DNA from: a virus
Lineage: Duplodnaviria > Caudoviricetes
Strand: one strand, 5' to 3'
DNA length: 64,000 bases
Virus record (IMG/VR): IMGVR_UViG_3300028888_000049
Below, in pieces: positions 4,502 to 60,020 of this stretch. Under the pieces are notes generated by a model. That model had not been told where the DNA came from, did no database searches, and was given only the letters and a program-made list of their open reading frames with translations. How positions within the stretch are numbered: position 1 is the stretch's first letter; the number at the start of each line of letters is the position of its first letter. The position numbers were made by a program, and so were the translations under genes.

Positions 4502-4807
4502 ATGAAGTATGAAATAAGAGAAAGTAAATATATTCATGATAGAGATGAATATAGACTAGAAACATTTTATCTTAAAATTATGCCAAATAAGTATGGTGAA
4601 GCACGATATTGTATGTCAATACATCGTATAACGGGTGATACAGATTTTGAATTTTATTTACCTTATAATAACCCTTATCCTATTGAGTGTTTAAAAAAGT
4701 TTCTTAAAAAGATAAATGTTAAATATTATTTATATAACTTAAGTATAAGGATAAACAAAGAAAATTTAGATAAACTAACATTTTTCTGTAAACTTTATGG
4801 AGTGTAA
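4502..4807 (+). CDS. C-terminal-motif family protein (tandem paralog of next gene)
   Basis: Ends ENLDKLTFFCKLYGV; AAGGAG RBS. Confidence 0.85.
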   Translation: MKYEIRESKYIHDRDEYRLETFYLKIMPNKYGEARYCMSIHRITGDTDFEFYLPYNNPYPIECLKKFLKKINVKYYLYNLSIRINKENLDKLTFFCKLYGV

Positions 4808-4808
4808 A

Positions 4809-5111
4809 ATGAAGTATGAAATAGATACATGTAATTATATTCATGATAAAGATGAATATAGATTAGAATCATTTTATCTCAAACTTATGCCAAATAATCA
4901 TAGTGGAGGATTTTATCATATATTAGTTAATTATATAACAAATGATGAATTTGAACTTTATATAACTTATAGTTATTCTTATGTTATAAAATGGCTTAAA
5001 AAGTTTCTTAAAAAGATAAATGTTAAGTATTATCTATATAAATTAAACGTAAGAATAAATAAAGAAAATTTAGATAAGTTAACGTTTTTCTGTAAACTTT
5101 ATGGAGTATAA
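4809..5111 (+). CDS. C-terminal-motif family protein (tandem paralog)
   Basis: Near-identical termini to 4502..4807; ATG 4809 after GGAG. Confidence 0.85.
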   Translation: MKYEIDTCNYIHDKDEYRLESFYLKLMPNNHSGGFYHILVNYITNDEFELYITYSYSYVIKWLKKFLKKINVKYYLYKLNVRINKENLDKLTFFCKLYGV

Positions 5112-5115
5112 AATT

Positions 5116-5448
5116 ATGAAAACTCTATTTAATATAATAAAAGAAATGTCTTGTGCTGGAAAAAGTGGTTATATCATTTCTAAAAAGAATGATAGAGTTT
5201 GGTTTTATTTATTTTCTTATAGATTTGATTATGAAAATATGTTACGTGAAAATAAACCAAAAGATAATGATTTAGATTATTATTATGTTTCTATGACTGG
5301 TAAAAATATAGAAAAACATGTTAGACTTCTTTTTAATGAACTAAACATTAAATGGATATATAAACGGATTTTTGATACAGAAAGATTATGTATAAGTAAA
5401 CAAGATTGTGATAGATTTATACAAACTTTAAAAATTTATGGTAAATAA
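5116..5448 (+). CDS. C-terminal-motif family protein
   Basis: LFNELNIKW...QDCDRFIQTLKIYGK. Confidence 0.8.
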   Translation: MKTLFNIIKEMSCAGKSGYIISKKNDRVWFYLFSYRFDYENMLRENKPKDNDLDYYYVSMTGKNIEKHVRLLFNELNIKWIYKRIFDTERLCISKQDCDRFIQTLKIYGK

Positions 5449-5470
5449 AAAATAAATGGAGGATATAAAA

Positions 5471-5794
5471 ATGTTAGATAAAGTTGAGATATATACTCTG
5501 AAACAATCTAAAGACGAGTCTGCAGTTTGGCATCCTCAAGAATTTATACATGGTTATGATAAGAATAAAAGAATATTTGAAATGTATAAATTTAATGATT
5601 ATGATATTGGTATAATAAGAGATAATTATCTTAATAATACTTTTATATTAAATTTATTAAAACAATTAGAAATTAAATATACTTATAGAACAAAGCATGA
5701 TCGTGAATGGTATGGTTTATATAGCAATCAAGATTATGAAAGAATAAAAATGTACTTCCAAATTTTAGGAATAACTGAAACTTATAAAGAGTAA
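5471..5794 (+). CDS. C-terminal-motif family protein
   Basis: LLKQLEIKY...QDYERIKMYFQILG; GGAGG RBS. Confidence 0.8.
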   Translation: MLDKVEIYTLKQSKDESAVWHPQEFIHGYDKNKRIFEMYKFNDYDIGIIRDNYLNNTFILNLLKQLEIKYTYRTKHDREWYGLYSNQDYERIKMYFQILGITETYKE

Positions 5795-5813
5795 ATAAGA
5801 AAGGAGACGTATT

Positions 5814-6113
5814 ATGATTAAATATAATTTATACTTAGGATTAAATGATAAAGATTCTAAAAGACAAAAGATTTCTGAATTAACTGCAATCAATATCATT
5901 TCAAAGTATATTCCTAACTGTTCAATAACACCTTTTAAAGGAATATATACTCATGAAAATGGTCAACAAGTTAAAGAAAATTCATTATTAATTACTGTAA
6001 TCGATTTAGATAATACTTTTAAACCAATTCCTGTTACTAGACAGTTAAAACAATTATTTAATCAAGAATCCATTATCGTTGAAACTGAGGAATCTAATTC
6101 TATCGCAATGTAA
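5814..6113 (+). CDS. DUF3574/PII-like fold protein, candidate SAM lyase
   Basis: G-x-Y...E-x-S...F-N-Q-E-S-I spacing resembles phage T3-type SAM lyases. Confidence 0.45.
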   Translation: MIKYNLYLGLNDKDSKRQKISELTAINIISKYIPNCSITPFKGIYTHENGQQVKENSLLITVIDLDNTFKPIPVTRQLKQLFNQESIIVETEESNSIAM

Positions 6114-6127: not shown

Positions 6128-6208
6128 ATGCTGATGTCATTTGGTTCACTGATGTATTTAACTACTTTTATCGTATATATTTATTGCTATTATCAATTTG
6201 TTAAATGA
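6128..6208 (+). CDS. 26-aa hydrophobic peptide (not in ORF track)
   Basis: GAAGGAG RBS; MLMSFGSLMYLTTFIVYIYCYYQFVK*; stop overlaps the next RBS. Confidence 0.55.
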   Translation: MLMSFGSLMYLTTFIVYIYCYYQFVK

Positions 6209-6219
6209 AAGGAACTAAC

Positions 6220-6558
6220 ATGAATATTAGAGAGTTTTATATTAAAATTGATAATGAACTTAAAGTAGCATATATTAGTTTTATAAATGATGAAGAAAGA
6301 TTATGTGAAGTAAATTTTCATTATGATGACGGTTTTTTTACAGCATATTTCGATGTTTGTCATCATGCTTTAAGAACCTCTATTGAACAGTTATTGACAG
6401 AATTAAATATTGAATTTGAAAAACCTTTTAATGGAAGGTCTTTTAATATTACAATAAATAAAAACAACTTTGATAAATTTGTATTTAGTTTGAAGTTATT
6501 ATATCCGGATTTATATACGGAATTATATTTTAAAAGATTTAATACGAAAGGAGTATAA
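6220..6558 (+). CDS. C-terminal-motif family protein
   Basis: LLTELNIEF...NNFDKFVFSLKLLYP. Confidence 0.8.
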   Translation: MNIREFYIKIDNELKVAYISFINDEERLCEVNFHYDDGFFTAYFDVCHHALRTSIEQLLTELNIEFEKPFNGRSFNITINKNNFDKFVFSLKLLYPDLYTELYFKRFNTKGV

Positions 6559-6559
6559 A

Positions 6560-7501
6560 ATGAGTGATTTGGATTTGCCAACAAGTATAAGTATTGGTAA
6601 TGAATATACTTTATATGCAGTATTTAAAAGAAACATATATTATGGTCAATTTGATGAAGATAAAATTGGTTCTTTTATATGTAATGATGTATTACATAGT
6701 AATATTAGTTATTCGAGAGATTATAATAATTCAAATATTTTTACGAAAAAAGGTGTTTATAACTTTTATGATAAAGAACATGATATCTTTAAATTTTTTG
6801 GAAGAAGATTAAGAATTTCAGAAGAATTTGCTAGAAAATGTTATTCTATGTATGACGATGATGAAGAATTTATAGCAAAATATTCAAGTTTAGAAAACTT
6901 TAAAAAATATGTAGCAAGCTTTATTAGAAAAGAATTAAATATTTCTGATGATTATGTCTTTTTAGATAAAAATGGTTATATTACAGATATACATTTAGGA
7001 GAAATATTATATACAACTGAAAACGCTGAAAAACATTATACGTTTTATATTGTTAAATTAGATCCGAAAAATATAGAGTTTGATAAAGAAACAAACTGTA
7101 ACAAAGAACCATTACTTAAAACTTTTAATAATATTACTGTTTATAAACAATTATATTTAGAAAGTATAAAACATTTTTGTGAAAAATATAATGTTTATTT
7201 TTCAAGATGTAATGATACAGAAGATATACTTAAAGCAGTAAATAATAATATATGCTTTGGAACGTTAAATTTTGATGCACGATATGATCACAGATTACAT
7301 GAGACATATGATGATATGATGAAAAAACTTGTGAACAAATTTACAGAATCATTATTAACTCATCTGTATGATGGTAAATTCTTAAGTGATCTTGAAGAAT
7401 TATGTTGTGATCGACAAAGCATTATTGAAGGATTGTCAAAAAGTATTATTAAAGGTATTAGTAACGGTATTAATAATATTAAAATAAATGGTATAAACTA
7501 A
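6560..7501 (+). CDS. hypothetical protein (~310 aa)
   Basis: Long ORF; AAGGAG RBS. Confidence 0.85.
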   Translation: MSDLDLPTSISIGNEYTLYAVFKRNIYYGQFDEDKIGSFICNDVLHSNISYSRDYNNSNIFTKKGVYNFYDKEHDIFKFFGRRLRISEEFARKCYSMYDDDEEFIAKYSSLENFKKYVASFIRKELNISDDYVFLDKNGYITDIHLGEILYTTENAEKHYTFYIVKLDPKNIEFDKETNCNKEPLLKTFNNITVYKQLYLESIKHFCEKYNVYFSRCNDTEDILKAVNNNICFGTLNFDARYDHRLHETYDDMMKKLVNKFTESLLTHLYDGKFLSDLEELCCDRQSIIEGLSKSIIKGISNGINNIKINGIN

Positions 7502-7520: not shown

Positions 7521-7877
7521 ATGCTATTATATAACTTACAATTACAATCTTATACAAGAGATATTAAAAAAGGTTATATAAAAGCTGAAAGAATCTATGG
7601 CTATTTCAGTATACATGATTCAACTCATGATTATAAATCAGATTTTGTATTTACTGAAACAGGAAGATTATTTATAACCACCTTAGATATGGCTGGTAAT
7701 CATTTAGATTTACCGTTTATAAAATATATAAAAGATAATTATGGTATTCAATTTAAATTTTCTAATAGAGAAACTTCATCACCTTCAAATTATAAAACCT
7801 ACATTACTAAACAAGAAAATTTTGATAAACTTAAAACTTGTTTCTTAATTCAGGGTATTATATCTGATAGGAGGTAA
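7521..7877 (+). CDS. C-terminal-motif family protein
   Basis: YIKDNYGIQF...ENFDKLKTCFLIQG; AGGAGG RBS. Confidence 0.8.
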   Translation: MLLYNLQLQSYTRDIKKGYIKAERIYGYFSIHDSTHDYKSDFVFTETGRLFITTLDMAGNHLDLPFIKYIKDNYGIQFKFSNRETSSPSNYKTYITKQENFDKLKTCFLIQGIISDRR

Positions 7878-7879: not shown

Positions 7880-8197
7880 ATGAAATATAATATCGTATTA
7901 AATCCTAGATTGATAGAAATAAATCAAGTAAATAAACCTTGTTCAACTATTGCATGGATAGAATATCATAATATTAAATCACAATTTGTTTGTTATATTA
8001 ATTATTATAAAGATTTAGAAGTTGTAGAATATATACTAAAACATCTAAATATCAAATATGAAGTCAAATCTAATAATATACAAACAGCTTATTATATATT
8101 TATTACGTATGATGAATATCAAAAATTAATTCTTTTATTAAAGCTTGAAGGAGAGTATAAAAATGGAGTGTATATATTCAGTTTCGACATTGAATGA
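7880..8197 (+). CDS. C-terminal-motif family protein
   Basis: ILKHLNIKY...DEYQKLILLLKLEG. Confidence 0.8.
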   Translation: MKYNIVLNPRLIEINQVNKPCSTIAWIEYHNIKSQFVCYINYYKDLEVVEYILKHLNIKYEVKSNNIQTAYYIFITYDEYQKLILLLKLEGEYKNGVYIFSFDIE

Positions 8198-8447
8198 TGG
8201 AGTTAATTCACATATCATTTATATACAAGGTAATCATGCTTTATTGATAAGTAAACCTTATAATGATTCTGTAAGTATAAGATGTAATGTTTATGCTTCT
8301 CATCAAGATTATATGCAATTTATTGATTATTTGGTAGAATCAAAAATAAACTTTATTGATCATAATACTGTAATTGATCAACATCTTGAATTAAGTGTTA
8401 AAGAAAGAGATAAATTAATAATGTTACTTAAAATTTATGGAGGTTAA
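8163..8447 (+). CDS. C-terminal-motif family protein
   Basis: KERDKLIMLLKIYGG; RBS lies inside the upstream motif. Confidence 0.8.
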   Translation: MECIYSVSTLNDGVNSHIIYIQGNHALLISKPYNDSVSIRCNVYASHQDYMQFIDYLVESKINFIDHNTVIDQHLELSVKERDKLIMLLKIYGG

Positions 8448-8448
8448 A

Positions 8449-9300
8449 ATGATAACTGTAGGTAAAGTAATAAATCTAAAACTTTGTTGTAATGTAGTTT
8501 ATCCAATAAATAGTATTGATAATTGTGATAAATTTAAAATTAGATTTAACGAAGCATTAGCTAAGGTAAATAATATTTCAAATTATGCCTATTATAATAT
8601 TTATAAAGAAAACTCACTTGGTTATTCTCAAGATAAATTATCTTTTGATGTTTATTCCTGTACATCATATAAAATATCTTTAGATGATTCAGATGTAAAA
8701 GAATTTAAAAAATATACATTAGGAGTGGATTATGGAACTATGAATGATTATGCTTGTAATTTCTTTTCAAAGAAACTTGATAAAGAAGTTATTGGTTTTT
8801 ATAATACTGGTTATAGAAGTGCTAGTGGTTTAATAAATCTTTATCATCATGGTTCATTCATAGATGCAGATGATTTTAAAGACATCAGAATAATTACAAA
8901 TGAAAATCTTAAACTTATTCAAGCTAATGCTTATTATAATCGTAGTTATTTATGTGTTGGACCAATTATTACAATGTTAAATACTTTATATGGTTGTGCA
9001 TTAACAGATATTTCTGAAAAATTAAAGATAAAGTCTTCAACAAATTGTAACTTTAATCGTTTTTTTACTCAAAATGATGCAGAATTAACTTTAGATTTAG
9101 GTCAGTATTTAGATGAAATTAGAAGAGAAGCTACTAAAAAAGCTTTAGATAAATTTGCTAAATCTAGTGTAATAGAAACGTTAAATGAAATGAATGCAAA
9201 AATTAAAGTCGATACAAGAAGTGAAATATTATATATCGATTTTAAAGATTTAATAAATAGTTTAATTGATAAAAATTATAAAAATAATACATCAAAATAA
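8449..9300 (+). CDS. hypothetical protein (~280 aa)
   Basis: Long ORF; GGAGG RBS. Confidence 0.85.
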   Translation: MITVGKVINLKLCCNVVYPINSIDNCDKFKIRFNEALAKVNNISNYAYYNIYKENSLGYSQDKLSFDVYSCTSYKISLDDSDVKEFKKYTLGVDYGTMNDYACNFFSKKLDKEVIGFYNTGYRSASGLINLYHHGSFIDADDFKDIRIITNENLKLIQANAYYNRSYLCVGPIITMLNTLYGCALTDISEKLKIKSSTNCNFNRFFTQNDAELTLDLGQYLDEIRREATKKALDKFAKSSVIETLNEMNAKIKVDTRSEILYIDFKDLINSLIDKNYKNNTSK

Positions 9301-9428: not shown

Positions 9429-10253
9429 ATGATTAAACTAACACCTGTTAAAAAGAAATACTTTGTATCAATAGAGCCATCACATTATTCTAAAAGTTTT
9501 ACTGATATTTATAACTGTAATAATACTAATAAATATTCTGGTAAAGTTACAGATTATGCAGATTATCATATTACTATTTCAAGAACAAATAGAAGAATAG
9601 ATAATTATAAATATTTTTATACAAATACGATTAAACAGATTACTGATACTGATAGTTTATTAGAAATTACAAATGATTTACTTAAATTTTTTAGTAGACG
9701 TAGCAAATATTATTGGTCAAACAGTAGATGTATTAGTTTTACTGATTTAGTATTAAGTCTATGTCAAAAGCATTTAGGTAATCATTATATTGTAAATGAT
9801 GGTGATATTTACTATTCAGAAAATAAAAGTCCTGAAGAAAATAAAAATAATATAATGCAAGCTTTACAAGATCTTTATTTGATTGATACCAACGATTTAG
9901 TATCAGATACTTTTATATCTAAAGCACAGCAAAGACATATAGATTTAGAAAAAGAAATGAATGTTAAAAAGACATTATTAAATTCGTTTTTAATGGATAA
10001 TATAAATAGTATTATAGAAGATTATGGATTAAAAGCAACAGAAAACGGTATTATATTCGAGTATAAAAATTCTTATCGTGAAGGTTTTGATAAATTTGTT
10101 ATGAAGGCTTTACATGAATTAATCGAAATACCATTAAAAGAACAACTTAATCTTGATACTAAATTTACTAAATCAAGATCTACTGCTCTTACAGATGGTT
10201 ATTCTGTATCTTGTTCTTTAAAAGATATTAGAATAAATACAAAGGAGTCATAA
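9429..10253 (+). CDS. hypothetical protein (274 aa)
   Basis: Long ORF; AAGGA RBS. Confidence 0.85.
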   Translation: MIKLTPVKKKYFVSIEPSHYSKSFTDIYNCNNTNKYSGKVTDYADYHITISRTNRRIDNYKYFYTNTIKQITDTDSLLEITNDLLKFFSRRSKYYWSNSRCISFTDLVLSLCQKHLGNHYIVNDGDIYYSENKSPEENKNNIMQALQDLYLIDTNDLVSDTFISKAQQRHIDLEKEMNVKKTLLNSFLMDNINSIIEDYGLKATENGIIFEYKNSYREGFDKFVMKALHELIEIPLKEQLNLDTKFTKSRSTALTDGYSVSCSLKDIRINTKES

Positions 10254-10517
10254 ATGTTAGATTTAGATGTTATCAACAGATATGGAACTGATAATTCATG
10301 TACATATTTTTTCCATTATAATGATTCATCTTGTCAAATGGTTAGAGTAGATGTTGAAAATAATACTATTTCAGATATGGAGGTTATAGATAATAAAGAT
10401 AAATGGTTTGAAACGTTACGTGAGTTAAATGTAATTAAGTCAAAACAACATAAACTAACATTTAAGAATCTACAAAAGCTGTTATTATTATATAAGATTA
10501 TGGGTTTTAATTTTTAA
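10254..10517 (+). CDS. C-terminal-motif family protein
   Basis: TLRELNV...KNLQKLLLLYKIMG. Confidence 0.8.
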   Translation: MLDLDVINRYGTDNSCTYFFHYNDSSCQMVRVDVENNTISDMEVIDNKDKWFETLRELNVIKSKQHKLTFKNLQKLLLLYKIMGFNF

Positions 10518-10578
10518 GGGAGAATAGATATAATGATGACAGTAATTTTATTAACAAATAATATAAGGAGTAATAATA

Positions 10579-15988: not shown

Positions 15989-16276
15989 ATGGAGATAGAA
16001 TTAAGTATAGTGAAAAAGGATTCTACGGGAGTTTATTGGGTTGTATTTCGTATTATTAACAACGACTGTATTGTTTATAACAAAGCTATGTATAGATTAT
16101 TATTAAGGGAAATAAAAAACTCAGGCTTAAAAATAATAAAAAGCTATGAGCATAAAGGCTATTATAAACTAACTCTTACAAAAGATGCTATTGAAAAATT
16201 ATGCTTTTTTATTAAGCTTTATAAAAAACGAATGAATGCATTAGATACTGAAAATGTTATTTATTATGAATTTTAG
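15989..16276 (+). CDS. C-terminal-motif family protein
   Basis: KDAIEKLCFFIKLY. Confidence 0.8.
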   Translation: MEIELSIVKKDSTGVYWVVFRIINNDCIVYNKAMYRLLLREIKNSGLKIIKSYEHKGYYKLTLTKDAIEKLCFFIKLYKKRMNALDTENVIYYEF

Positions 16277-16290: not shown

Positions 16291-16605
16291 ATGAAAAAAG
16301 AAAAAGAGTTTAAATTAACCGAAGTAAAAGTTATTAATTATGGATTAGTCTTAAGTATAAAGATTAATAACTTTGCTTTTAGAATTATATATGACTTTTA
16401 TTATAATACATTTATGTTAGAAGTTGATTGTCATATTTCTACTACAAAAGGAAAAGCTTTTGAATACTTTTGCAATATCTTTAATTTAAAAATTAAACCA
16501 GATGATAGAGGATGGTATAATGATATTGCTTTAGAATATGATGATTATTTAAAAATAGTATCACAACTTAAATCAATGGGTATCAAATATAAATATGGAG
16601 ATTAA
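16291..16605 (+). CDS. C-terminal-motif family protein (paralog of next)
   Basis: Starts MKKEKEFKL; DDYLKIVSQLKSMG. Confidence 0.8.
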   Translation: MKKEKEFKLTEVKVINYGLVLSIKINNFAFRIIYDFYYNTFMLEVDCHISTTKGKAFEYFCNIFNLKIKPDDRGWYNDIALEYDDYLKIVSQLKSMGIKYKYGD

Positions 16606-16607: not shown

Positions 16608-16907
16608 ATGAAAAAAGAAAAAGAGTTTAAATTAAATGGAGTTTCGGTCATTGAGTATGGAAGAACTTTAAGTATTAAAATTGGTAATGAGTCATTTCAT
16701 ATTATTTATGATTTTGAAGAAGATTGTTTTATATTAATTGGTGATATGCCTGTTATTAAAGGTGAAAATTATAAAAAATTTTGTGATTACTTTAATCTAC
16801 CACTCGAAACTTATTGTGGTGGTATGTATTATAAGAATGTAAAGCTTGACTATGATACATATAAAAAGCTAAGAATGCAATTTAAAATATTAGGTTATTT
16901 ATTATAA
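16608..16907 (+). CDS. C-terminal-motif family protein (paralog of previous)
   Basis: Starts MKKEKEFKL; DTYKKLRMQFKILG. Confidence 0.8.
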   Translation: MKKEKEFKLNGVSVIEYGRTLSIKIGNESFHIIYDFEEDCFILIGDMPVIKGENYKKFCDYFNLPLETYCGGMYYKNVKLDYDTYKKLRMQFKILGYLL

Positions 16908-17358: not shown

Positions 17359-17712
17359 ATGAAAACAGATATCTCTAAAGAAATTTTAAAAGATATTGGT
17401 AAAGCACTTACGGATATTTTTATTAAGAATAATTTAATACCAAATAAATATGTATCAATATCTGTGCAAAAAGCTAAAAAATTTAGAGTATTATATGAAG
17501 AAAAATCTGATACAACTTGGTATGCGTTAACAATTACTAGATGGGTTTTTGAAGGAATTGATCCAAAATGGAGTATTAAAAGAATAAAATTTATAGAAAA
17601 GTTATTGAATGAAAAAATAGCTGACGTGTGTAAAAATATATTTAAAGATGATTTATTTTTGACTGACGAACAAGTGAATAAATTATATATAATGTCAAAA
17701 ATTTATAATTGA
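17359..17712 (+). CDS. C-terminal-motif family protein
   Basis: EQVNKLYIMSKIY; paralog of 18159 and 18488. Confidence 0.8.
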   Translation: MKTDISKEILKDIGKALTDIFIKNNLIPNKYVSISVQKAKKFRVLYEEKSDTTWYALTITRWVFEGIDPKWSIKRIKFIEKLLNEKIADVCKNIFKDDLFLTDEQVNKLYIMSKIYN

Positions 17713-18158: not shown

Positions 18159-18476
18159 ATGAGAATTTATGAAATTGAAAGCTATTTAACTAATATATTT
18201 AAGAAAAATAAGCTTTTAAAAGATAATTATTCAGTATTTATAATATATATAGCAAATAATAGTATCTTTTATAATTATGAGAGTGAATCAGAAGCAAAAT
18301 ATTATATATTTGTAGGGTGTTTAAAAAATACCAAAACTGAAATTCCTTTTGGAATACGAAGAAGAAAGTTTTTAGAAACTTTACTTAATAAACAACTTAA
18401 ATGTACTACTTATAATTTAAAGTGTTGTCAAGAAGATTTAGAAAAATTATATGTATTATCAAAAATTATGCAGTGA
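18159..18476 (+). CDS. C-terminal-motif family protein
   Basis: EDLEKLYVLSKIMQ. Confidence 0.8.
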   Translation: MRIYEIESYLTNIFKKNKLLKDNYSVFIIYIANNSIFYNYESESEAKYYIFVGCLKNTKTEIPFGIRRRKFLETLLNKQLKCTTYNLKCCQEDLEKLYVLSKIMQ

Positions 18477-18487
18477 GGAGGTATATA

Positions 18488-19054
18488 ATGTTAGAAGTTA
18501 ATATTTCAGATGCTATAACAGTTAAGCTTTTAGATAATGCTCATAATATTATTGATAATAAGTATGTATTAACAGCTAAACAATATAAGTTATTATCTGT
18601 TGAACAAATTGATGAATTAACATTATTATTTAAAGTTCGTGATTATAATACTAATGAAATTATTATCTTTTCAACCGAAGATGATGACATATTACATCGT
18701 CATATAGGTTTAGAGCATATTACTAACACTAATTTACAAATGAGAGCTATTAAAAAGGATTGTAAAGCCGTTGCTTCTAAGTTATATAATATATTATGTA
18801 AAAATGGTTTAATTAAAAGTAATAATATAACTGTTGATATTACACATTATGGTGGAAAAACTTATCTTATAGAAATTAAAAATTTAAACAATTATTCGCC
18901 TTATTCATGTTGTCCATTTGGAGTTAAAAGACTTAAATTTATAAATGAAATTACACAATTTAATTTAGAATTATCTTCCAATAATAAAGTTTTATGTATG
19001 GATGCTCTTCAATTTAATACATTAAAAACAGTTTTAAATATCTTAGGAGCCTAA
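18488..19054 (+). CDS. C-terminal-motif family protein with two motif copies
   Basis: GAGGAGG RBS at ATG 18488; EQIDELTLLFKV internally and QFNTLKTVLNILG at the end. Confidence 0.8.
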   Translation: MLEVNISDAITVKLLDNAHNIIDNKYVLTAKQYKLLSVEQIDELTLLFKVRDYNTNEIIIFSTEDDDILHRHIGLEHITNTNLQMRAIKKDCKAVASKLYNILCKNGLIKSNNITVDITHYGGKTYLIEIKNLNNYSPYSCCPFGVKRLKFINEITQFNLELSSNNKVLCMDALQFNTLKTVLNILGA

Positions 19055-19316: not shown

Positions 19317-19619
19317 ATGATGGAATTAAGACAATTATCATATTATCTTTCAGGTTTTTTAGGTAAAAAATTAAAGAAATCAAGTATACTTACAAGATAT
19401 TCTTTAGATAAACAATATATTATTATTAGTACTAGTAATAAAATAGTATATAGCCATATTTTAAAAGCAATAGAACAGTTAATAGAAGTTGTTCCAACAA
19501 GTAGAAGAAGTCCATTAGAAGGTATAATACCAGGTAATCATTATGAATGTCTTATTTCAACAAAAGATGCAGAAAAACTAATGACTATATTAATAATTGG
19601 AGGATACTATATTGGCTAA
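19317..19619 (+). CDS. C-terminal-motif family protein
   Basis: KDAEKLMTILIIGG. Confidence 0.8.
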   Translation: MMELRQLSYYLSGFLGKKLKKSSILTRYSLDKQYIIISTSNKIVYSHILKAIEQLIEVVPTSRRSPLEGIIPGNHYECLISTKDAEKLMTILIIGGYYIG

Positions 19620-20317: not shown

Positions 20318-20638
20318 ATGACATATTCACAAATAAAACAATTATGTTCAAACTTAAGTAATGTATTATGTGCATATTTAGATGTAGAATGGGGAACAAT
20401 TACATTAAATACTTGTGTTCAATCTGATAATAAGATTGAATATAGTTTTGCAATATGTGGATATGGTAAGTATAAAATTAGTAATCTGTTTAAAACTTTA
20501 GAAAAATTCTTAGTACAATTAAATATAAAACACCATGCACCACATATAATGTTAAAACAAAATTTATGTTTTGTTCCTATAGACGTAGATCAACTTGATA
20601 AACTTATCATGTATTTTTCAATAGAAGGTTTATTATGA
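20318..20638 (+). CDS. C-terminal-motif family protein
   Basis: FLVQLNIKH...DQLDKLIMYFSIEG. Confidence 0.8.
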   Translation: MTYSQIKQLCSNLSNVLCAYLDVEWGTITLNTCVQSDNKIEYSFAICGYGKYKISNLFKTLEKFLVQLNIKHHAPHIMLKQNLCFVPIDVDQLDKLIMYFSIEGLL

Positions 20639-20919
20639 GTAAAGATTATGATACTTATCTTGAAGAAATCACAAGATTGCAAGAACTTTTAAAAGAAACT
20701 TTAAAAGCTAGACATAGTATTTTCTTCCATAAAACAAGTATATTAGCTTTTGATGAAGATGTAGAACCTTTAAAGCAATTTCTAACAGACTTAGGAATAG
20801 AATATAAAGAAACACAGAATGTTAAGATATCAGATACAGAGAAAGCAATAACTCTTGCAATGAATGAAAAAGAATATGAAAAACTTGTAGCATACTTTAA
20901 AATAAATGGAACCTATTAA
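20635..20919 (+). CDS. C-terminal-motif family protein
   Basis: FLTDLGIEY...KEYEKLVAYFKING. Confidence 0.8.
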   Translation: MSKDYDTYLEEITRLQELLKETLKARHSIFFHKTSILAFDEDVEPLKQFLTDLGIEYKETQNVKISDTEKAITLAMNEKEYEKLVAYFKINGTY

Positions 20920-20926
20920 AAATTGC

Positions 20927-21175: not shown

Positions 21176-21523
21176 ATGAAATTTTATTTTGAGGGTAATT
21201 ATCATAACAAAGTATATTATAACAATGAGTTGTATTCAAATAAAGATAATGGCCTTAAAGAAAAATTAAATGATTTATTCAAATGCTCTTATTTCAAATT
21301 TTTACTTTCAAATACATGTAATTATTCTATAACAATAGATAATAAACAATATTGTTTTATGTCTTATTTTATAGCATCAACGGCATATACAGCAACTTTA
21401 ATAGAAGAAAAACTTAAAGAAATTGGAATTGAATATTTTAAAACAGTTAATAATGAAATTTATTTAGATGAAAAACAATCAGAAAAGCTTTATATGTTTT
21501 TAGTTATTAATAAAATTATATAG
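21176..21523 (+). CDS. C-terminal-motif family protein
   Basis: KLKEIGIEY...KQSEKLYMFLVINK. Confidence 0.8.
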   Translation: MKFYFEGNYHNKVYYNNELYSNKDNGLKEKLNDLFKCSYFKFLLSNTCNYSITIDNKQYCFMSYFIASTAYTATLIEEKLKEIGIEYFKTVNNEIYLDEKQSEKLYMFLVINKII

Positions 21524-21532: not shown

Positions 21533-21811
21533 ATGCTTAAATATAATCTTATACCAAAAATTCATACTGCAACAAAATTAATAAGTAGATGTATGAAGAT
21601 AAACCAAAATCATTTATTATTGTTTTCAGCAAGAGAATTAGGTTATATTACTATTAGATCTCTTTCTAAAATAGATATTATTTATATGAAGGATAAGTTT
21701 GAAGAAAAATATAACTTTAAAACAATTATAAAAGATGATTATAGTTTAATTATAAAAATTGAAGATATAAATAATCTATTTGCACTTTATAAAATAGAAG
21801 GATGGATTTAA
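21533..21811 (+). CDS. C-terminal-motif family protein
   Basis: EDINNLFALYKIEG. Confidence 0.8.
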   Translation: MLKYNLIPKIHTATKLISRCMKINQNHLLLFSARELGYITIRSLSKIDIIYMKDKFEEKYNFKTIIKDDYSLIIKIEDINNLFALYKIEGWI

Positions 21812-22125
21812 TGTCAGAATCAGATAATATAACACAAAATGATATGGAATTTGTAGATTTTAACAGATTTGCATTTATGTCTTATTGTATACATTCATTA
21901 AAAATCAGACATTGTTATACTACTTGCAAAAAGACTATGTTTGGAATAATCATTAAATTTTGTGATTTGAATATCTGTAAAATTTTTTTAGAATGGTTAG
22001 AAACTCATTATGGAATAGCCAAAGAGTATAAAAGTAAACCGAATAATTATAATAATGAAAAATATTCAGTTGAATTATCAAAACAAGATATAGAAAGAAT
22101 GAAATTTATTAAAGCTATTTATTAA
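21811..22125 (+). CDS. C-terminal-motif family protein
   Basis: WLETHYGI...QDIERMKFIKAIY; TAATG coupling. Confidence 0.8.
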   Translation: MSESDNITQNDMEFVDFNRFAFMSYCIHSLKIRHCYTTCKKTMFGIIIKFCDLNICKIFLEWLETHYGIAKEYKSKPNNYNNEKYSVELSKQDIERMKFIKAIY

Positions 22126-23627: not shown

Positions 23628-23629
23628 TT

Positions 23630-24294: not shown

Positions 24295-24591
24295 ATGTTA
24301 ATGTACAATATTAAAAAATTCTATAGTATAGTCAATGAAGAATATGATATTGTTAAAATACAAATCTTTGTTGACAATATTAATGATGAAGGATATTGTA
24401 AAATACATGTTCTTAATAAACTAAATCCTGTAACTAGAATAACTAGTATTATGTCATTTATGGATTTGTTGAATAAACTTGAAATTAAAGATTATTCATG
24501 CAGTGTAGAGTCTAGTTTATCTCTACAAATAGATATAGATTCAGAAGAAGCAGAAAAATTATTTTTATATTTGAGGGTTTATTATGACTAA
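24295..24591 (+). CDS. C-terminal-motif family protein
   Basis: LLNKLEIKDY...EEAEKLFLYLRVY; class 1 promoter at 24253. Confidence 0.8.
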   Translation: MLMYNIKKFYSIVNEEYDIVKIQIFVDNINDEGYCKIHVLNKLNPVTRITSIMSFMDLLNKLEIKDYSCSVESSLSLQIDIDSEEAEKLFLYLRVYYD

Positions 24592-24889
24592 TTTAACAGA
24601 CATACTGACAGAGGTAGATAAAAAGTCATTTAATGAAGAATGGTTATCTATAAACAATATAACTAATATTTTTATTGTAGCTTCATATAATGTAGAAAAT
24701 GTTAATGCAATTTTAGCAGAATTAGAAATAAAACCTATTTTTATAGATGAAAATATAAAAGATCATTTAATTTATAATGAAGTAACTATACATATGATTA
24801 CATTTATATTCAATAGGATTTTATATAGCTTTTCAGAAGAAGACGCAGAAAAAATTAGAATGCTAATGAGGATATATGATAATGAATAA
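24584..24889 (+). CDS. C-terminal-motif family protein (paralog of next)
   Basis: YSFSEEDAEKIRMLMRIY. Confidence 0.8.
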   Translation: MTNLTDILTEVDKKSFNEEWLSINNITNIFIVASYNVENVNAILAELEIKPIFIDENIKDHLIYNEVTIHMITFIFNRILYSFSEEDAEKIRMLMRIYDNE

Positions 24890-25214
24890 CAATGCTGTAA
24901 TACATATGGACGGTAATTTAGCGGGTATGCTTCTAGAATTAAAAACGGAAATATTTAATCAAGAATGGTTATTTACTAATAATATAACTAACACTTTTGC
25001 TATAGCACCGTATAATGTAGAAACTGTCAATATGATTTTAACAGAATTAGAAATAAAACCCATTCTTATAGAAAAAAAGCCAGTAGATCATTTAATTTCT
25101 ACAACATTCTCTATACTTTTAACTACATTTCTATTTGGAAAGATTTTATATAGTTTTTCAGAAGAAGATGTAGAAAAACTTAGAATAATAATGAGGATAT
25201 ACAGCAATGAATAA
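24876..25214 (+). CDS. C-terminal-motif family protein (paralog of previous)
   Basis: YSFSEEDVEKLRIIMRIY. Confidence 0.8.
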   Translation: MIMNNNAVIHMDGNLAGMLLELKTEIFNQEWLFTNNITNTFAIAPYNVETVNMILTELEIKPILIEKKPVDHLISTTFSILLTTFLFGKILYSFSEEDVEKLRIIMRIYSNE

Positions 25215-25542
25215 TAATTGTGTAATACATATTAGCAGTAATCAAATAATACAAGGACAAAAACATTTTACAATACCTAGAAAAGTTGAAGTATATGAGA
25301 TATATTCTTATAGAATAACTATGAAAAAACCAGTATTTAAAACAAATGATTCTACAGATACTTTTGCAGATTGCTTTATACAAATAGCAGGTGATGAAAC
25401 TTTTCAAAAAATATGTCAAGATCTAAATATTCAATGGACAAAAAAAGCAATAAAATCTTACGCTACATTCTATAACTTTGATAAAGAAGATTACGAAAAA
25501 CTATACTTCTATATTAAAATCATCGGAGAACATATAGTATGA
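25207..25542 (+). CDS. C-terminal-motif family protein
   Basis: ICQDLNIQW...EDYEKLYFYIKIIG. Confidence 0.8.
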   Translation: MNNNCVIHISSNQIIQGQKHFTIPRKVEVYEIYSYRITMKKPVFKTNDSTDTFADCFIQIAGDETFQKICQDLNIQWTKKAIKSYATFYNFDKEDYEKLYFYIKIIGEHIV

Positions 25543-25862
25543 ATCAACTAAATTCAAAAGAAATAGATCCAATACGAATACTAAGAAATACACCAAGATT
25601 TACTAGATTTATACAGGATATACTAGGATTAAAATGTGAAGACAAAAATATATCAGACGATGCATTTATTATGAATGAAGGTTATAGACCAAAAGTATTA
25701 CATGCGCTTTTACAACTCGATATAACTCCAATCTTTATTGACAGACTTGATAATATATTCACAAATAAGTATTTAGAAGAAAGAGTATCGGCTTTTACTA
25801 TTATAGATATAACTGAAGAAGATCATAAAAAACTAAAACTACTTCTCAAAATTTATAAATAA
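25539..25862 (+). CDS. C-terminal-motif family protein
   Basis: LLQLDITPIFID...EDHKKLKLLLKIYK. Confidence 0.8.
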   Translation: MNQLNSKEIDPIRILRNTPRFTRFIQDILGLKCEDKNISDDAFIMNEGYRPKVLHALLQLDITPIFIDRLDNIFTNKYLEERVSAFTIIDITEEDHKKLKLLLKIYK

Positions 25863-49757: not shown

Positions 49758-51716
49758 ATGATGAATGAACAAATTAAAAATATTTTAGAAAAATGTAATG
49801 AAGCATATTCTAAAGGTGAAGTATATTTTCTTAAAGATGATGAGTATCCAGTTGTAGAACAAGAATTTAATATAGTTATTCCACATTTAGATGTAGATGA
49901 TCACTTATATGATATTATTTATTTTTGTGCTAAAGAAAAATGGCCAGATGATGAATTTTTCAATAAATTAACTTCTGAGAATACTGGTTATGGTATAGAT
50001 ATAACACATGAAATTCCAATGGGTAGTATGGAAGAACTTAAAGAAGGTGATTTGGAAAAATGGATTGGAAATCACAAAGATTTTGTAATTTCTGATAAAT
50101 TAGATGGTTGTTCTATTATTTTAACTTATATAAATGGACAATTGATTAAGGCTGCGACTCGTGGACATGGTATAACAGGAAAAGATGTTATGCGTCATAT
50201 TAAACAAGTTCCAAGTATACCTAAATATATAGACTATAAAGATAAATTAATTGTTCGAGGTGAACTTCTTTTCAAAAAGAATATGATTCAATCTATACTT
50301 GATGATATCGAATTAAAAACAGGTAAAAAACAAAAGAATGGTCGTAATACTATTGCAGGTGCATTAAATAGAAAAGATACAGATATTAATATTTTTAATA
50401 ATTGTAAATTTGTAGCTTACTGGACGTCTGAAAATTTAGGAACATTAAGAGCCTTTAAGCAATTAGAAGATTTTGGTTTTTTAGTGCCTTACTATCAAGA
50501 ATGTTCTAATGAAATATTAACAGATGAAAATTGTTTAGAAATAGTAAAAACTCGTTTAAAATTTTCTAATTATGAATTAGATGGTATAATAATTACTCAA
50601 AATGATTATACTGATACTGGATTTGTTGGTAATACAATCAATCCAAAATGTTCACGTAAATTTAAAATGGGTATTTATGATAATATTGCTGAATCTAAAG
50701 TTGTAAATATTGATTGGAAAATTAGTAGATGGAATGTATTTACACCAGTATTAGAGATTGAACCAACTGAAATATGTGGTTGTACAGTTACTAATATTAC
50801 AGCTCATAATTATGAAAATGTTTTGAATGTAAAATGTGGTATTGGTTCTAAAATTAAATTTAGTAGAGCTGGATTAGTTATTCCTAAACTAGAAGAAGTA
50901 TTAGAACCTTCTGAAGAATATAACTTACCTAATTGTAAAACCAAAAAGGTGGGTGTAGATTTAGTATTTGATGAAGAAGATCCGTATTCAGATGAGAATT
51001 TATTTACATATGCTAGAGAACGAGACATTCAAGCACTTGATAATTTTGGTAAAAAACTAAAAATAGATCAATGGGGTTACGGTAATTGTGCTAAATTATA
51101 TGATCACTTCTTCTTTACTGATAGTATTATTTTAGCTCCTGTAGATGTATTTAATATTCCTGATTCATTATTTACATACTTAATAGGTAAGAATGGTGAA
51201 AAGATAGTTAGTAGTCTTAATACTATTAAACAAAATATTTCTGAAATAGTATTTGCATCTGCTTGTGGTTTATTTGGACAAGGTATAGGTGAATCAATTT
51301 TAAAATTAGTATATGATAAATATAACACTTTGGAAGTATCAAAAGAACATCTAGAAGCTTTAGAGGGTTTTGGAGATACTCGTATAGAACAATACTTAGA
51401 ATGCTTACCAGAATATGTTAGAGCAAAAGAATATGTAAATGGATTAGGTATAACTTTTGATAATAATATTGTACAAAAAACATCTAATAATTTAGAAGGT
51501 ATTGTAGTATGTTTTACTGGTATTAGAGATAAAGACTTTTCTAAATTTATAAATGATAATGGAGGAGTAGCTAGTGATAATTGGAAATCTTCAACAACTC
51601 ACTTGATTGTAAAAGATAAGAATACAACAACTTCTAAAATGCAAAAAGCTCTTGATAAAGGTTGTAAAATATTAACATTAGAAGAAGCATATAAGGAATT
51701 TAATTATGAACGATGA
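49758..51716 (+). CDS. ligA: NAD-dependent DNA ligase
   Basis: KLDG adenylation motif, ATRGHG, VRGE, ELDGII, OB-fold, C-terminal BRCT (VCFTG...KMQKA). Confidence 0.95.
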   Translation: MMNEQIKNILEKCNEAYSKGEVYFLKDDEYPVVEQEFNIVIPHLDVDDHLYDIIYFCAKEKWPDDEFFNKLTSENTGYGIDITHEIPMGSMEELKEGDLEKWIGNHKDFVISDKLDGCSIILTYINGQLIKAATRGHGITGKDVMRHIKQVPSIPKYIDYKDKLIVRGELLFKKNMIQSILDDIELKTGKKQKNGRNTIAGALNRKDTDINIFNNCKFVAYWTSENLGTLRAFKQLEDFGFLVPYYQECSNEILTDENCLEIVKTRLKFSNYELDGIIITQNDYTDTGFVGNTINPKCSRKFKMGIYDNIAESKVVNIDWKISRWNVFTPVLEIEPTEICGCTVTNITAHNYENVLNVKCGIGSKIKFSRAGLVIPKLEEVLEPSEEYNLPNCKTKKVGVDLVFDEEDPYSDENLFTYARERDIQALDNFGKKLKIDQWGYGNCAKLYDHFFFTDSIILAPVDVFNIPDSLFTYLIGKNGEKIVSSLNTIKQNISEIVFASACGLFGQGIGESILKLVYDKYNTLEVSKEHLEALEGFGDTRIEQYLECLPEYVRAKEYVNGLGITFDNNIVQKTSNNLEGIVVCFTGIRDKDFSKFINDNGGVASDNWKSSTTHLIVKDKNTTTSKMQKALDKGCKILTLEEAYKEFNYER

Positions 51717-52050
51717 TTTGAAAACATATGTTGTACGTAATGATGGAACAAGTGATCCAGAAATTATAAATGATAATTATAAAAAATATACAGTTAGGGA
51801 CTTTATACCAGACTATTCAGAAATTGCAACAGTAGATTGGGTAAAAGGAATTGTTGAACAAAATGAAACTATTGAAGATTTATATAAGAAAATATATGAT
51901 AAATTAGTAGAAATAAATCCTGAAGAAGCAGAAAAATATGAGACTTATTTAAAAATTTATAACGGTGATTATAGAACTACCGTCTTGTTAATTGAAACTA
52001 ATACATTAGAGGTTAAATCTTCAGATGTATTAAAACTTTTAAAAAAATAA
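51706..52050 (+). CDS. hypothetical protein
   Basis: AAGGA RBS. Confidence 0.75.
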   Translation: MNDDLKTYVVRNDGTSDPEIINDNYKKYTVRDFIPDYSEIATVDWVKGIVEQNETIEDLYKKIYDKLVEINPEEAEKYETYLKIYNGDYRTTVLLIETNTLEVKSSDVLKLLKK

Positions 52051-57389: not shown

Positions 57390-57446
57390 GACTTTACATT
57401 TAATGTAACTTATTATATATAATTATATCAAATGAAAGGTGTTGTC

Positions 57447-57851
57447 ATGTTAAAATATTTTAAATATCGTAAACTAAATAAATTTTTTAAAAATACTATT
57501 AATGAATTACCAGTGAAATATTCATCTGATGAAGATATTGATAAATTACGCAATATATTAGTACAATTAGCAGAAATAGCAACTGATAATAATATTTTAA
57601 TAGAGAATTGTGGTAAAGGTCTATCAGAAGAAGAAAAAGATACACTGTTTTTAAAATGGGCTAACTCATTAAATATATTTTGTAGTTATTGTAGTAAATA
57701 TGCGTCTAAAGCGTTTACAAAAGTATTAGATAAAAATACAGAATTAGAGCCACAAGAGTTACTGGAATATTGTGTAATTGTACCATCAGAATTAGATTCA
57801 TATAGTAAAATTATTTCAAATTGCATTATAATATTAAAGGCTTTACGCTAA
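57447..57851 (+). CDS. hypothetical protein
   Basis: AAGGTG RBS before ATG 57447; class 1 promoter at 57393. Confidence 0.8.
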   Translation: MLKYFKYRKLNKFFKNTINELPVKYSSDEDIDKLRNILVQLAEIATDNNILIENCGKGLSEEEKDTLFLKWANSLNIFCSYCSKYASKAFTKVLDKNTELEPQELLEYCVIVPSELDSYSKIISNCIIILKALR

Positions 57852-57860
57852 GGGGTAAAA

Positions 57861-58883
57861 ATGGTAAGTAAAAAAGAAAAAGATCAGATTATTGATAACT
57901 TTGAAAAATGGTTAAATACGTTTAATGAATCACAATCAGGAAAAGAACTCTGCAAATTAATAAGTGAATTTATATCTGCTAAATTTACTCAAATTATGCC
58001 AGATAATATGAAAAAAGATGCGGAAAATGATTCAGATGATAATGCAAATAAACCACATATTGTCATGATGGGAAATCCAAGTATGTTAGATATGCTTCCT
58101 CCAGAAATGAGAGATGCTATTCTAAAAGGAACAGTACCTAATAATGATGCAATCGATGAAGCTAAACCAGAAGTACCGTCTAAAGTATTATATGACTTTA
58201 ATATGGTTAATTGTAATGTTGATTTAAAAGAACTTACCAAAAAACTTAAAAAGAGTAAAATCACTAAATACGGTATCTTGCTATATGGTGTTTCAGGATC
58301 TGGTAAATCTCAGTTTGCTAAGTATTTGGCTCAAGAATTAGGAATGGGATTTATTAAAGAAAGAGCTTCAGATATTTTTGGTAAATTTGTTGGTGAATCA
58401 GAAGGTAATATTAAAAAAGCATTTAAAAAAGCTAAAGATACAAAATCAGTATTAGTATTTGATGAAGCAGATTCATTCTTATTTGATAGAAATATGGCAA
58501 GGCAAGCTCATGAAGTTTCACATACTAACGAACTGTTTGTAAACATGGAAGATCATCCCTATCCATTCGTAATGACTACTAACTTAAAAGATAAATTAGA
58601 TAAAGCTAGTATACGTCGTTTCTTATTCAAAGTTAAATTTGATTGGATGACTAAAGATAATATAAAAGCTGGTCTAAAAACATACTTTGGTAAAGAATAT
58701 AAGTTTACTAAAGAACAATATGATCAACTTAAATATATTTCAGCTGGTGATTTTGATATTGCCAAACAAAAATTAGATATCTTAGAAAATGGTGAATATA
58801 CATCAGATAAGATCTTTGAATATCTATTAGCAGAACAAAATGAAAAAGAAATAGAAGAAGGAACAGCAAGCATTGTATTTTGA
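57861..58883 (+). CDS. classic-clade AAA+ ATPase
   Basis: GVSGSGKS, KFVGESE, LVFDEADS, MTTN, LDKASIRRF. Confidence 0.93.
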   Translation: MVSKKEKDQIIDNFEKWLNTFNESQSGKELCKLISEFISAKFTQIMPDNMKKDAENDSDDNANKPHIVMMGNPSMLDMLPPEMRDAILKGTVPNNDAIDEAKPEVPSKVLYDFNMVNCNVDLKELTKKLKKSKITKYGILLYGVSGSGKSQFAKYLAQELGMGFIKERASDIFGKFVGESEGNIKKAFKKAKDTKSVLVFDEADSFLFDRNMARQAHEVSHTNELFVNMEDHPYPFVMTTNLKDKLDKASIRRFLFKVKFDWMTKDNIKAGLKTYFGKEYKFTKEQYDQLKYISAGDFDIAKQKLDILENGEYTSDKIFEYLLAEQNEKEIEEGTASIVF

Positions 58884-59196
58884 TGCAGAAGCTATATATG
58901 TAAAACCTAAAGATGATAAGTTTTATTGGGAATTGAAGGATTTACTAAATAAACATAGTATATCTATTTTTACAGTAGTACATAAAGATTTAAGGTATTG
59001 CTATGAATTACAGGATCTTTCACAAAATGAACATGAGCTTTTTATTGATACTGTTAAAAGTTTACAAAAAGAAGCTTCTGATATCGAATATAAATGTGTA
59101 TATAACTGTAAAATATTAAGATATTCATTATTAAAACCTTCTGAAAATGCAGATATAAACAATAAACTTCTTTTTATGCTCAAAACATATTTGTAA
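58873..59196 (+). CDS. C-terminal-motif family protein (TTG start)
   Basis: DINNKLLFMLKTYL. Confidence 0.7.
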   Translation: MYFDAEAIYVKPKDDKFYWELKDLLNKHSISIFTVVHKDLRYCYELQDLSQNEHELFIDTVKSLQKEASDIEYKCVYNCKILRYSLLKPSENADINNKLLFMLKTYL

Positions 59197-59217
59197 AAGC
59201 TCGTAGGATGACCCGTA

Positions 59218-59571
59218 ATGATTAAAAAACTAAAATATATAATTGATACCATAAAAACATATAACGAGCGTGTACGGCTTTCTAAGGAGCTTAAAAGTTA
59301 TATTTCAAAAATAGAAGGAATATATTTAGTTATTCCACATAAAATCAGTCACTTTAATAACAATTTTAAATATACTATTAATAATCCATATCCTCTTATA
59401 GTTGAAGGAATGAATGCTAGAGCAAAAATACAAGAAATGTCTGACTATTTACATGTTAGAGTTATATCGAATCATACAATTTCTTTAAAAAATATAATTA
59501 TAACATATGAACCGTATTCAGCAGATATAGATCATTTTCTTATGTTAAAGAAAATACAAGGGGAATATTAA
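59218..59571 (+). CDS. C-terminal-motif family protein (paralog of next)
   Basis: DIDHFLMLKKIQGEY. Confidence 0.8.
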   Translation: MIKKLKYIIDTIKTYNERVRLSKELKSYISKIEGIYLVIPHKISHFNNNFKYTINNPYPLIVEGMNARAKIQEMSDYLHVRVISNHTISLKNIIITYEPYSADIDHFLMLKKIQGEY

Positions 59572-60020
59572 TGAAATTACTTGATAAACTTAAAGATATA
59601 ACTATATATTCTTTAAAAGTTCATAATTACAGAGAAAGAAAAGAATTCTCTAAAATATTACACGGTTTTCTAGTAAAATATAATATACCTAATAAAATAA
59701 TAGTACCTAGATTTAAAAACCAAATAATAATAGAATCTTTCAAAGTTAAATATGGTGTATCATCAAAAGTATCATTTGAATATGAATTAAATTTAAGTAC
59801 ATTCGAAGACGCTATAAAAATATATGGTATACCTTTCTATTACAATGAACAAAACTCAATAAAACAACCTTACTATAACACTATCACTCTAACAATAGAA
59901 TACTCACAATATATTCAAGACTTTGTAAAACTAACAACCATACAAGGCAAATATCCAAAAATAAACTACAGAATGCTTGAAGACTTTGGCATCGATAACT
60001 ACACTAAACCAGAGAATTAA
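59571..60020 (+). CDS. C-terminal-motif family protein (paralog of previous)
   Basis: IQDFVKLTTIQGKY; stop overlaps the convergent stop (TTAA). Confidence 0.8.
   Translation: MKLLDKLKDITIYSLKVHNYRERKEFSKILHGFLVKYNIPNKIIVPRFKNQIIIESFKVKYGVSSKVSFEYELNLSTFEDAIKIYGIPFYYNEQNSIKQPYYNTITLTIEYSQYIQDFVKLTTIQGKYPKINYRMLEDFGIDNYTKPEN

Follow-up and report, generated by a model that had tools for sequence, protein, structure and literature searches.

The window analysed here, a 64,000-nucleotide stretch of viral DNA (IMG/VR record IMGVR_UViG_3300028888_000049; Duplodnaviria, Caudoviricetes), encodes 26-27 copies of one family of small proteins, in which a conserved C-terminal core follows a variable N-terminal part. 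The family is restricted to this phage lineage, is expanded in the window and takes up about 8.5 kb (13%) of it. The copies are under purifying but relaxed selection, most relaxed in the N-terminal part. As a leading but tentative explanation, to which we give somewhat less than an even chance, we propose that the proteins are early, soluble binders or inhibitors of different host or rival-element macromolecules, diversified on one scaffold.

A first-pass annotation of the window had placed 31 open reading frames (ORFs) in one family because they end in a shared pattern. All 31 listed starts open real ORFs on the + strand, of 87-188 amino acids (aa), that carry the claimed C-terminal patterns, and many of the starts overlap or abut the preceding stop. 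BLASTP among all 159 window ORFs joins only recent duplicates, and the family claim therefore rests on profiles. The duplicates form four adjacent or nearby pairs (4502/4809, 16291/16608, 24584/24876 and 17359/18159). ORFs are named by their first position.

A seed profile made from the last ~45 aa of 16 clear members picked up four window ORFs outside the seed (4809, 7880, 24876 and 51706). The top score among 3,339 shuffled or reversed controls was 14.2 bits. For a control with real ORFs we used the same window-only seed profile: 10 bits was reached by 20 of 103 window ORFs and by none of 544 control ORFs (70-230 aa) drawn from 40 kb of Bacillus phage G and the whole genomes of two related phages. 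In a leave-one-out test, where close duplicates were removed along with the tested ORF, 12 of 20 ORFs were recovered at E<0.01 (best 6e-10), and five (5116, 16291, 18159, 21176 and 21533) were at noise level.

The iterated profile added ORFs from two syntenic contigs of one close relative (L001 and L002, also used for orthologue comparison) and from 15 IMG/VR loci, with a threshold of 10 bits and a match required to end near the C-terminus. It converged on 26 window ORFs; members score at least 23 bits, the next window ORF scores 6.9 bits, and no shuffled sequence exceeds 10 bits. Scores of ORFs already in the model are inflated because of how the profile is constructed. Six late additions (5471, 6220, 7521, 15989, 19317 and 21811) each entered from a model lacking that ORF.

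On these searches and their controls, family membership is supported for 25 of the 31 listed ORFs and is probable for 18488. It is not supported for 19597, 36267, 58873, 59218 and 59571, which match members no better than do 45 non-family small ORFs. A further ORF absent from the earlier list, 51706, is a possible extra member. The predicted members, all on the + strand, are as follows (bits refer to the final profile unless stated).

4502..4807 (+): member, 101 aa, recent duplicate of 4809 (66% identical); 51.1 bits; leave-one-out E 7e-6; L001 orthologue 78% identical.
4809..5111 (+): member, 100 aa; 47.2 bits; matched by the seed profile from outside the seed; without a separate L001 orthologue.
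5116..5448 (+): member, 110 aa; 50.0 bits; fails leave-one-out (1.4 bits), so that its membership rests on the joint profile; orthologue 80% identical.
5471..5794 (+): member, 107 aa, late addition; entered at 10 bits or more; 35.6 bits.
6220..6558 (+): member, 112 aa, with an 18-aa tail past the core, late addition; 9.8-11.3 bits in early profiles; 45.8 bits.
7521..7877 (+): member, 118 aa, late addition by iteration; 42.3 bits.
7880..8197 (+): member, 105 aa; 23.6 bits with the seed profile (outside the seed); 51.0 bits.
8163..8447 (+): member, 94 aa, the second modelled protein; 53.3 bits; leave-one-out E 2e-6.
10254..10517 (+): member, 87 aa; 35.7 bits; leave-one-out E 0.03.
15989..16276 (+): member, 95 aa, with a 17-aa tail, late addition by iteration; 34.2 bits.
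16291..16605 (+): member, 104 aa, 47% identical to 16608; 31.2 bits; fails leave-one-out with the pair removed.
16608..16907 (+): member, 99 aa; 35.3 bits; leave-one-out E 0.009.
17359..17712 (+): member, 117 aa, in a subfamily with 18159 and 18488; 36.8 bits; 30% identical to 18159 (E 5e-6).
18159..18476 (+): member, 105 aa; 23.3 bits; BLASTP matches to 17359 and 18488.
18488..19054 (+): probable member, 188 aa, with an N-terminal extension of ~90 aa before the family domain; BLASTP match to 18159.
19317..19619 (+): member, 100 aa, late addition by iteration; 30.7 bits.
20318..20638 (+): member, 106 aa; 42.2 bits; leave-one-out E 7e-6.
20635..20919 (+): member, 94 aa, start overlapping the previous stop (ATGA); 41.9 bits; leave-one-out E 4e-7; orthologue 95% identical.
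21176..21523 (+): member, 115 aa; 31.6 bits; weak in leave-one-out (5.4 bits).
21533..21811 (+): member, 92 aa; 36.1 bits; weak in leave-one-out (2.2 bits).
21811..22125 (+): member, 104 aa, weakest of the late additions; 24.0 bits; orthologue just 59% identical.
24295..24591 (+): member, 98 aa, first of a five-gene run; 43.9 bits; leave-one-out E 3e-4.
24584..24889 (+): member, 101 aa, 59% identical to 24876; 39.1 bits.
24876..25214 (+): member, 112 aa; 39.8 bits; 21.1 bits with the seed profile (outside the seed).
25207..25542 (+): member, 111 aa, the first modelled protein; leave-one-out E 6e-10, the best of all.
25539..25862 (+): member, 107 aa; 39.9 bits; leave-one-out E 3e-4.
51706..52050 (+): possible member, 114 aa, with a 29-aa tail, lying immediately after the gene for the NAD-dependent DNA ligase; seed-profile score 15.0 bits; leave-one-out E 7e-4.

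The assignment of 18488 comes from a single pairwise BLASTP comparison, which matches 18159 over its full length (residues 95-175 of 18488 against 6-95 of 18159; 91 aa, 27% identity, E 3e-5), and the family profile does not recover it. The 210-aa ORF that holds it (18422-19054) gives a weak match to PBECR1 at residues 90-154 (E 0.009, under the curated cut-off). PBECR1 is a phage barnase/EndoU/RelE-like nuclease domain. The seed score of 51706 barely exceeds that of the best shuffle (14.2 bits), and a 36%-identical orthologue adjoins the ligase gene in a whole relative, G001 (195865-196191). This ORF could be an old single-copy member ancestral to the arrays, or a chance profile match.

The expansion is apparent from the comparison with relatives. 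Five related genomes searched with an earlier family alignment gave nothing, and the iterated profile then found few diverged copies. Two whole relatives were compared: G001 (237 kb; capsid protein 78% identical) has 4-6 detectable copies and G002 (227 kb; 77%) has 2-5, vs 26-27 in the window. Because there are many copies here and few in whole relatives, the expansion is lineage-specific. By eye, further small ORFs in the relatives end in a similar strand-helix-Gly pattern, and their counts are therefore lower bounds. On its minus strand the window carries the gene for a major capsid protein of the gp23 type (28256-29815; Pfam PF07068, E 1e-22), and the interval from this gene to the orthologue of 4000-4401, which holds most family copies, is 23.8 kb in the window vs 6.8 kb in G001. 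With many copies here, few in relatives, duplicate pairs lying nearby and the 4809 duplicate absent from L001, the family has the marks of tandem paralogue expansion.

Orthologues in the close relative are 56-95% identical, vs 96-100% for conserved neighbours such as the DUF2201, PAPS-reductase-like and ParB-like proteins. The fastest-evolving orthologue pair is that of 7880 (64% identical), with nonsynonymous divergence (dN) of 0.43 exceeding synonymous divergence (dS) of 0.27 in its N-terminal part (25 codons). Pooled Nei-Gojobori estimates of dN/dS are:

Family N-terminal parts: dN/dS 0.51 (596 codons).
Family cores: dN/dS 0.32 (1,181 codons).
Other (neighbouring) genes: dN/dS 0.23 (3,251 codons).

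Taken half by half, as the first-pass annotation had suggested, the N-terminal part evolves faster than the core, and its picture of a diversified paralogous family with a conserved C-terminal part is borne out. A 683-bp contig from another sample (L046) aligns with window positions 25349-25741 and retains the 25207 core, with 61 aa at 95% protein identity. The first ~48 codons of 25207 and the DNA before them give way to unrelated sequence; the N-terminal 37 residues are replaced exactly at the core border. Either the N-terminal part has been swapped at this border, or the contig is an assembly chimera.

Most copies might instead lack an individual function, the array having grown by unequal recombination and serving to fill head-full packaging capacity. 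Copy number does vary widely among relatives, recent duplicates exist, and jumbo-phage genomes have been proposed to grow through tandem duplication (PMC5646251). Largely dispensable duplicates would nevertheless be hard to square with open frames kept by all copies in two diverged phages, with dN/dS of 0.3-0.5, well below 1, at a dS of about 0.3, and with old copies that still keep the core pattern at 13% column identity. We consider this very unlikely.

The constant part had been described as one docking helix. The profile and two structural models point to a larger shared unit, a strand-helix-strand-strand-helix core of ~64 residues. The statement that the N-terminal halves do not align was likewise too strong: the 64 positions of the converged profile cover about two thirds of each protein, and only the first 18-59 residues fail to align. 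Core positions 4-12 are a strand rich in Y, I and F, and positions 20-31 are a helix ending L-x-x-L-N/G-I-K. Two short strands (positions 32-35 and 43-47) lead to the final helix at 48-63, S-x-E-D-h-E-K-L-x-x-h-h-K-I-Y-G. Mean column identity across the family is 13%.

AlphaFold2 predicts 25207 (20 sequences) with a local confidence score (pLDDT) of 59 overall and 74-88 in the core, and 8163 (60 sequences) with a pLDDT of 69.5 and a predicted template-modelling score (pTM) of 0.64. The 8163 model has three N-terminal strands, then helix-strand-strand-helix. The two independent models agree on the core order (strand or strands, helix, strand, strand, helix), and both modelled members are without an N-terminal helix.

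The strongest positions of the last helix are hydrophobic (L55, 100% hydrophobic; I61, 98%; and 52, 58 and 59) and are spaced as one helical face, with acidic residues at the start of the helix and a Gly at its end. This is the pattern expected of a capped helix packed on a sheet. The helix also has conserved polar residues, K54 (69%), K/R60 (81%) and an acidic position 53 (61%). By helical geometry these may be exposed, and a shared surface is therefore still conceivable. The terminal Gly codon is GGA in 9 of 15 cases, vs 26% of Gly codons in other genes; read with the base that follows, it often serves as the GGAG ribosome-binding site for the downstream gene. Given this double use, part of the motif conservation may be nucleotide-level constraint. 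The 3' ends concerned are those of 4502, 4809, 7521, 7880, 8163, 16291, 19317 and 25207. Another motif, TTTACAAAATAC, common to two operon heads, is not enriched (6 found vs 2.4 expected).

The last helix is central to the possibility of an adaptor repertoire, in which it would dock on one phage or host machine (for example a ClpB-like or AAA ATPase) and the variable N-terminal part would pick client proteins. It is the best-conserved element, its positions 54, 60 and 53 keep the residues given above despite the 13% mean column identity, the N-terminal part is faster-evolving and swappable, and the window holds genes for a ClpB-like ATPase (41266-43383) and an AAA protein (57861-58883). However, the combination of hydrophobic strongest positions, N-terminal acidic residues and terminal Gly is that of a buried, capped structural helix, both models place the helix in one domain with the preceding strands, and the terminal Gly is partly explained by its ribosome-binding-site use. 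Detectable copies are also few in G001 and G002, and G001 has an orthologue of the AAA gene (58% identical) with no ClpB-like orthologue in the comparison. We judge adaptors to be unlikely. More improbable still is the specific form in which K54, K/R60 and acidic position 53 of interchangeable adaptors dock a ClpB-like unfoldase or similar while the N-terminal parts capture different host proteins. Were this so, the phage would be equipped with a programmable means of its own to remodel or remove host proteins.

The predicted fold, a two-layer alpha/beta sandwich, is a common one. Structure searches with both models (Foldseek PDB, Foldseek viral and VIA-align) give nothing above chance, and the top lists of the two models differ. 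The best Foldseek PDB E-values are 0.06 and 0.12. VIA-align compared the models against 48,161 chains, where models without a true match typically reach Z 7-8; its best matches are ACT-like domains at Z 6.6 (root-mean-square deviation, rmsd, 2.9 over 77 residues) and Z 5.4 (rmsd 2.5, 65 residues), below that chance level. A match to the eIF1/SUI1 fold (Z 5.6) is in the noise range. The ACT-like/ferredoxin-like sandwiches (the 3l76 aspartate kinase regulatory domain, CASTOR 9kpb and VC0802 1zvp) give the best scores with both models and have the common strand-helix-strand-strand-helix order. Unlike in an ACT domain, the last helix is followed by no further strand in either model; the sequences show no relationship, nothing points to ligand binding, and no member has an ACT Pfam match.

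The weak viral fold matches of the 8163 model include five ~138-aa paralogues of phage G (gp303, gp322, gp489, gp140 and gp519; best template-modelling score, TM, 0.55, E 0.11). These score at most 6.9 bits with the family profile, belong to no Pfam family and show no sequence link. Coordinates of ~138-aa proteins in the Bacillus phage G locus (L031) are 6149-6565, 10284-10700 and 20735-21148, and their neighbours gp307 and gp308 have a similar strand-helix-Gly ending. The ~138-aa proteins may represent an analogous family of a second AT-rich jumbo phage.

The predicted fold also bears on whether the family binds nucleic acid. The proteins could be dead LAGLIDADG-type or other sheet-saddle domains, derived or convergent, whose sheet face reads DNA or RNA, and could act as gene-specific regulators or structural DNA-binding proteins. 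From the sequence, helix-'L..LNI'-strand-strand-helix resembles the second half of a LAGLIDADG domain, and the homing endonucleases I-DmoI, I-Vdi141I, I-OnuI and I-WcaI and the non-catalytic WhiA recur among the weak fold matches of both models. These LAGLIDADG/WhiA structures (2vs8, 3hyi and 8dy9) have the helix-strand-strand-helix unit with an 'L..LGI'-like helix end. By eye, 20318, 20635, 19317, 17359 and 18159 seem to start with a helix and two strands, which would complete the order helix-strand-strand-helix-strand-strand-helix. A zinc-ribbon expansion in phage G has been proposed to supply transcription factors or structural DNA-binding proteins (PMC7824862).

On the other side, the VIA-align scores of WhiA (Z 4.8-5.1), I-DmoI (Z 4.5-4.6, the 4.6 with the 25207 model) and I-WcaI (Z 4.2) are within the chance range, below the level of 7-8 and below the ACT-like domains (5.4-6.6). 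The matches at Z 4.5-5.1 have rmsd 3.4-4.6 over 65-77 residues, and LAGLIDADG entries in Foldseek have E-values of at least 0.14. The family differs from LAGLIDADG proteins in having no LAGLIDADG helix and no catalytic acidic residue. The N-terminal helix with conserved glycines and a terminal Asp/Glu was not found, the profile has no Gly-rich acidic helix, and the modelled members have N-terminal strands at the place of the first helix. The LAGLIDADG Pfam models (1/2/3 and WhiA) match none of ten members at E up to 10 and none of all 60 at E up to 1, where the scan of the 60 gave the best 25 of 41 families and a LAGLIDADG match at E 0.08-1 is conceivable. No LAGLIDADG_3 gene was found in five related genomes, and control genomes gave matches. 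Members range in isoelectric point (pI) from 4.5 to 9.5 and in net charge from -10 to +8; half are neutral or acidic, which is unusual for DNA binders. We give nucleic-acid binding a small chance. Isolated look-alikes of the LAGLIDADG helix are visible by eye in 19317 ('YLSGFLGKK') and 24876 ('LAGMLLE').

The family appears to be new: Pfam, PHROGs, PDB sequences and cultured phages all lack a match to it. Scanned at E up to 1, the 60 members have no recurring Pfam family; one member has a single PHROGs match (E 0.008), and nothing significant came from the PDB sequence profiles. When 1.84 billion protein representatives were searched with the profile, 18 proteins were returned, and all the small ones are orthologues from close relatives. 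No match was found by tblastn against 50,697 phage records, and looking up features and structures in the ESM Atlas yielded nothing informative. Longer, fused forms of the family were looked for and none was found, which is weak evidence. The RnlA N-terminal domain (PF19417) gave a weak match for 20635 (E 0.023), and RNase HIII (3vn5) gave E 0.012, weakening to 0.32 with a larger alignment; phage G gp308 also gave a weak RnlA/RNase HIII N-domain lead. We reject this kinship, with an hhalign probability of at most 1.2% against RnlA N-terminal and repeated-domain alignments (49 RnlA homologues).

In the binder explanation that we favour, the ORFs are one small soluble protein that has expanded in this lineage, each copy forming a single compact alpha+beta domain of ~90-120 residues. 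On reading the member sequences we see no signal peptide, membrane segment or cysteine pattern. The core is the common scaffold, with the last helix packing its hydrophobic face onto the sheet, and the N-terminal 18-59 residues and the surface charge vary between copies. The region next to the capsid gene is plastic; copies arose there through tandem duplication and have been kept by selection. They would be produced early, from co-directional and translationally coupled operons, and each may bind or inhibit, stoichiometrically, its own macromolecule of the host or of a rival element. The family would thus form a host-takeover or counter-defence repertoire.

Early expression is suggested by analogy with T4. 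T4-like phages have hyperplastic early regions, which are clusters of small co-directional ORFs of no assigned function, opposite to the late capsid gene and poorly conserved. The family is on the strand opposite to the capsid gene, and the window resembles such regions in its small co-directional ORF clusters opposite a gp23-like capsid gene and in their poor conservation among relatives. The T4 regions hold many unrelated singletons, and we know of no single family in at least 26 copies there.

The analysis shows the family, its core, its confinement to this lineage, its expansion and its selection regime; the early timing and the binder function are what we infer. Several points weigh against the binder explanation. 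A scan for sigma-70-type promoters finds 177 sites, vs 176.5 in shuffles, and AT-rich DNA makes such a scan uninformative. With dN/dS below 1 overall there is no general arms-race signature, dN exceeding dS in only two small N-terminal parts (7880 and 21533). K54 and K/R60 could mark a shared surface, which would fit one common partner better than many. The predicted membership of 5116, 16291, 18159, 21176 and 21533 rests on the joint profile, not on leave-one-out, and the two models, at pLDDT 59 and 69.5, are of middling confidence.

Expansions of this sort are already on record, and it is the protein family itself that is undescribed. Bacillus phage G and coliphage 121Q have been reported to carry tandem arrays of more than 30 genes (PMC5646251); phage G also has a zinc-ribbon family of ~35 copies, termed unprecedented in 2021 (PMC7824862). 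As in those cases, the paralogues here are small, diverged and co-directional, run to dozens within a single large phage genome, are lineage-restricted and of unassigned function, and are attributed to tandem duplication. Unlike those, the copies here have no zinc-ribbon cysteines and no sequence match, they are far more diverged (13% column identity) than 'very similar genes', and they stand in several runs broken by unrelated genes.

Large phages devote a sizeable share of their genomes to expanded small-protein families that nobody can name. With its core, membership list, orthologues and selection profile now defined, this family can be named and tested. If each copy does bind a host or defence protein of its own, the family would amount to a natural library of small inhibitors, already built on a single scaffold, and would be a further case for jumbo-phage growth through gene duplication and diversification.

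The window has a G+C content of 23-31% and belongs to a contig of 263,463 bp. A megablast of the window gave no match, and the closest capsid protein of a cultured phage (among the 50,697 phage records) is just 35% identical. Related loci number 15 in IMG/VR; their contigs reach 237 kb, and their capsid proteins show 57-82% identity. Given the gp23-type capsid protein, the lack of a close cultured phage and the related IMG/VR contigs, we assign the window to an uncultured, AT-rich, distantly T4-like jumbo phage. Besides the genes named above, it encodes an anaerobic ribonucleotide reductase and a GIY-YIG endonuclease.

Two sets of neighbouring genes lie among the family arrays. At 22115-24175 on the minus strand, a PAPS-reductase/DUF3440 protein (440 aa, PF11922 E 3e-75) adjoins a ParB_N-like protein (181 aa). 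These two genes are 99% conserved in the relative and stand on the opposite strand amid the arrays; the pairing recalls IbrA/IbrB-type or DNA-modification gene pairs. Three proteins of 274-313 aa (6560-7501, 8437-9300 and 9429-10253), with no Pfam family, are interleaved with the family runs and evolve at the pace of the family, with 76-83% identity to the relative vs 96-100% for conserved neighbours.

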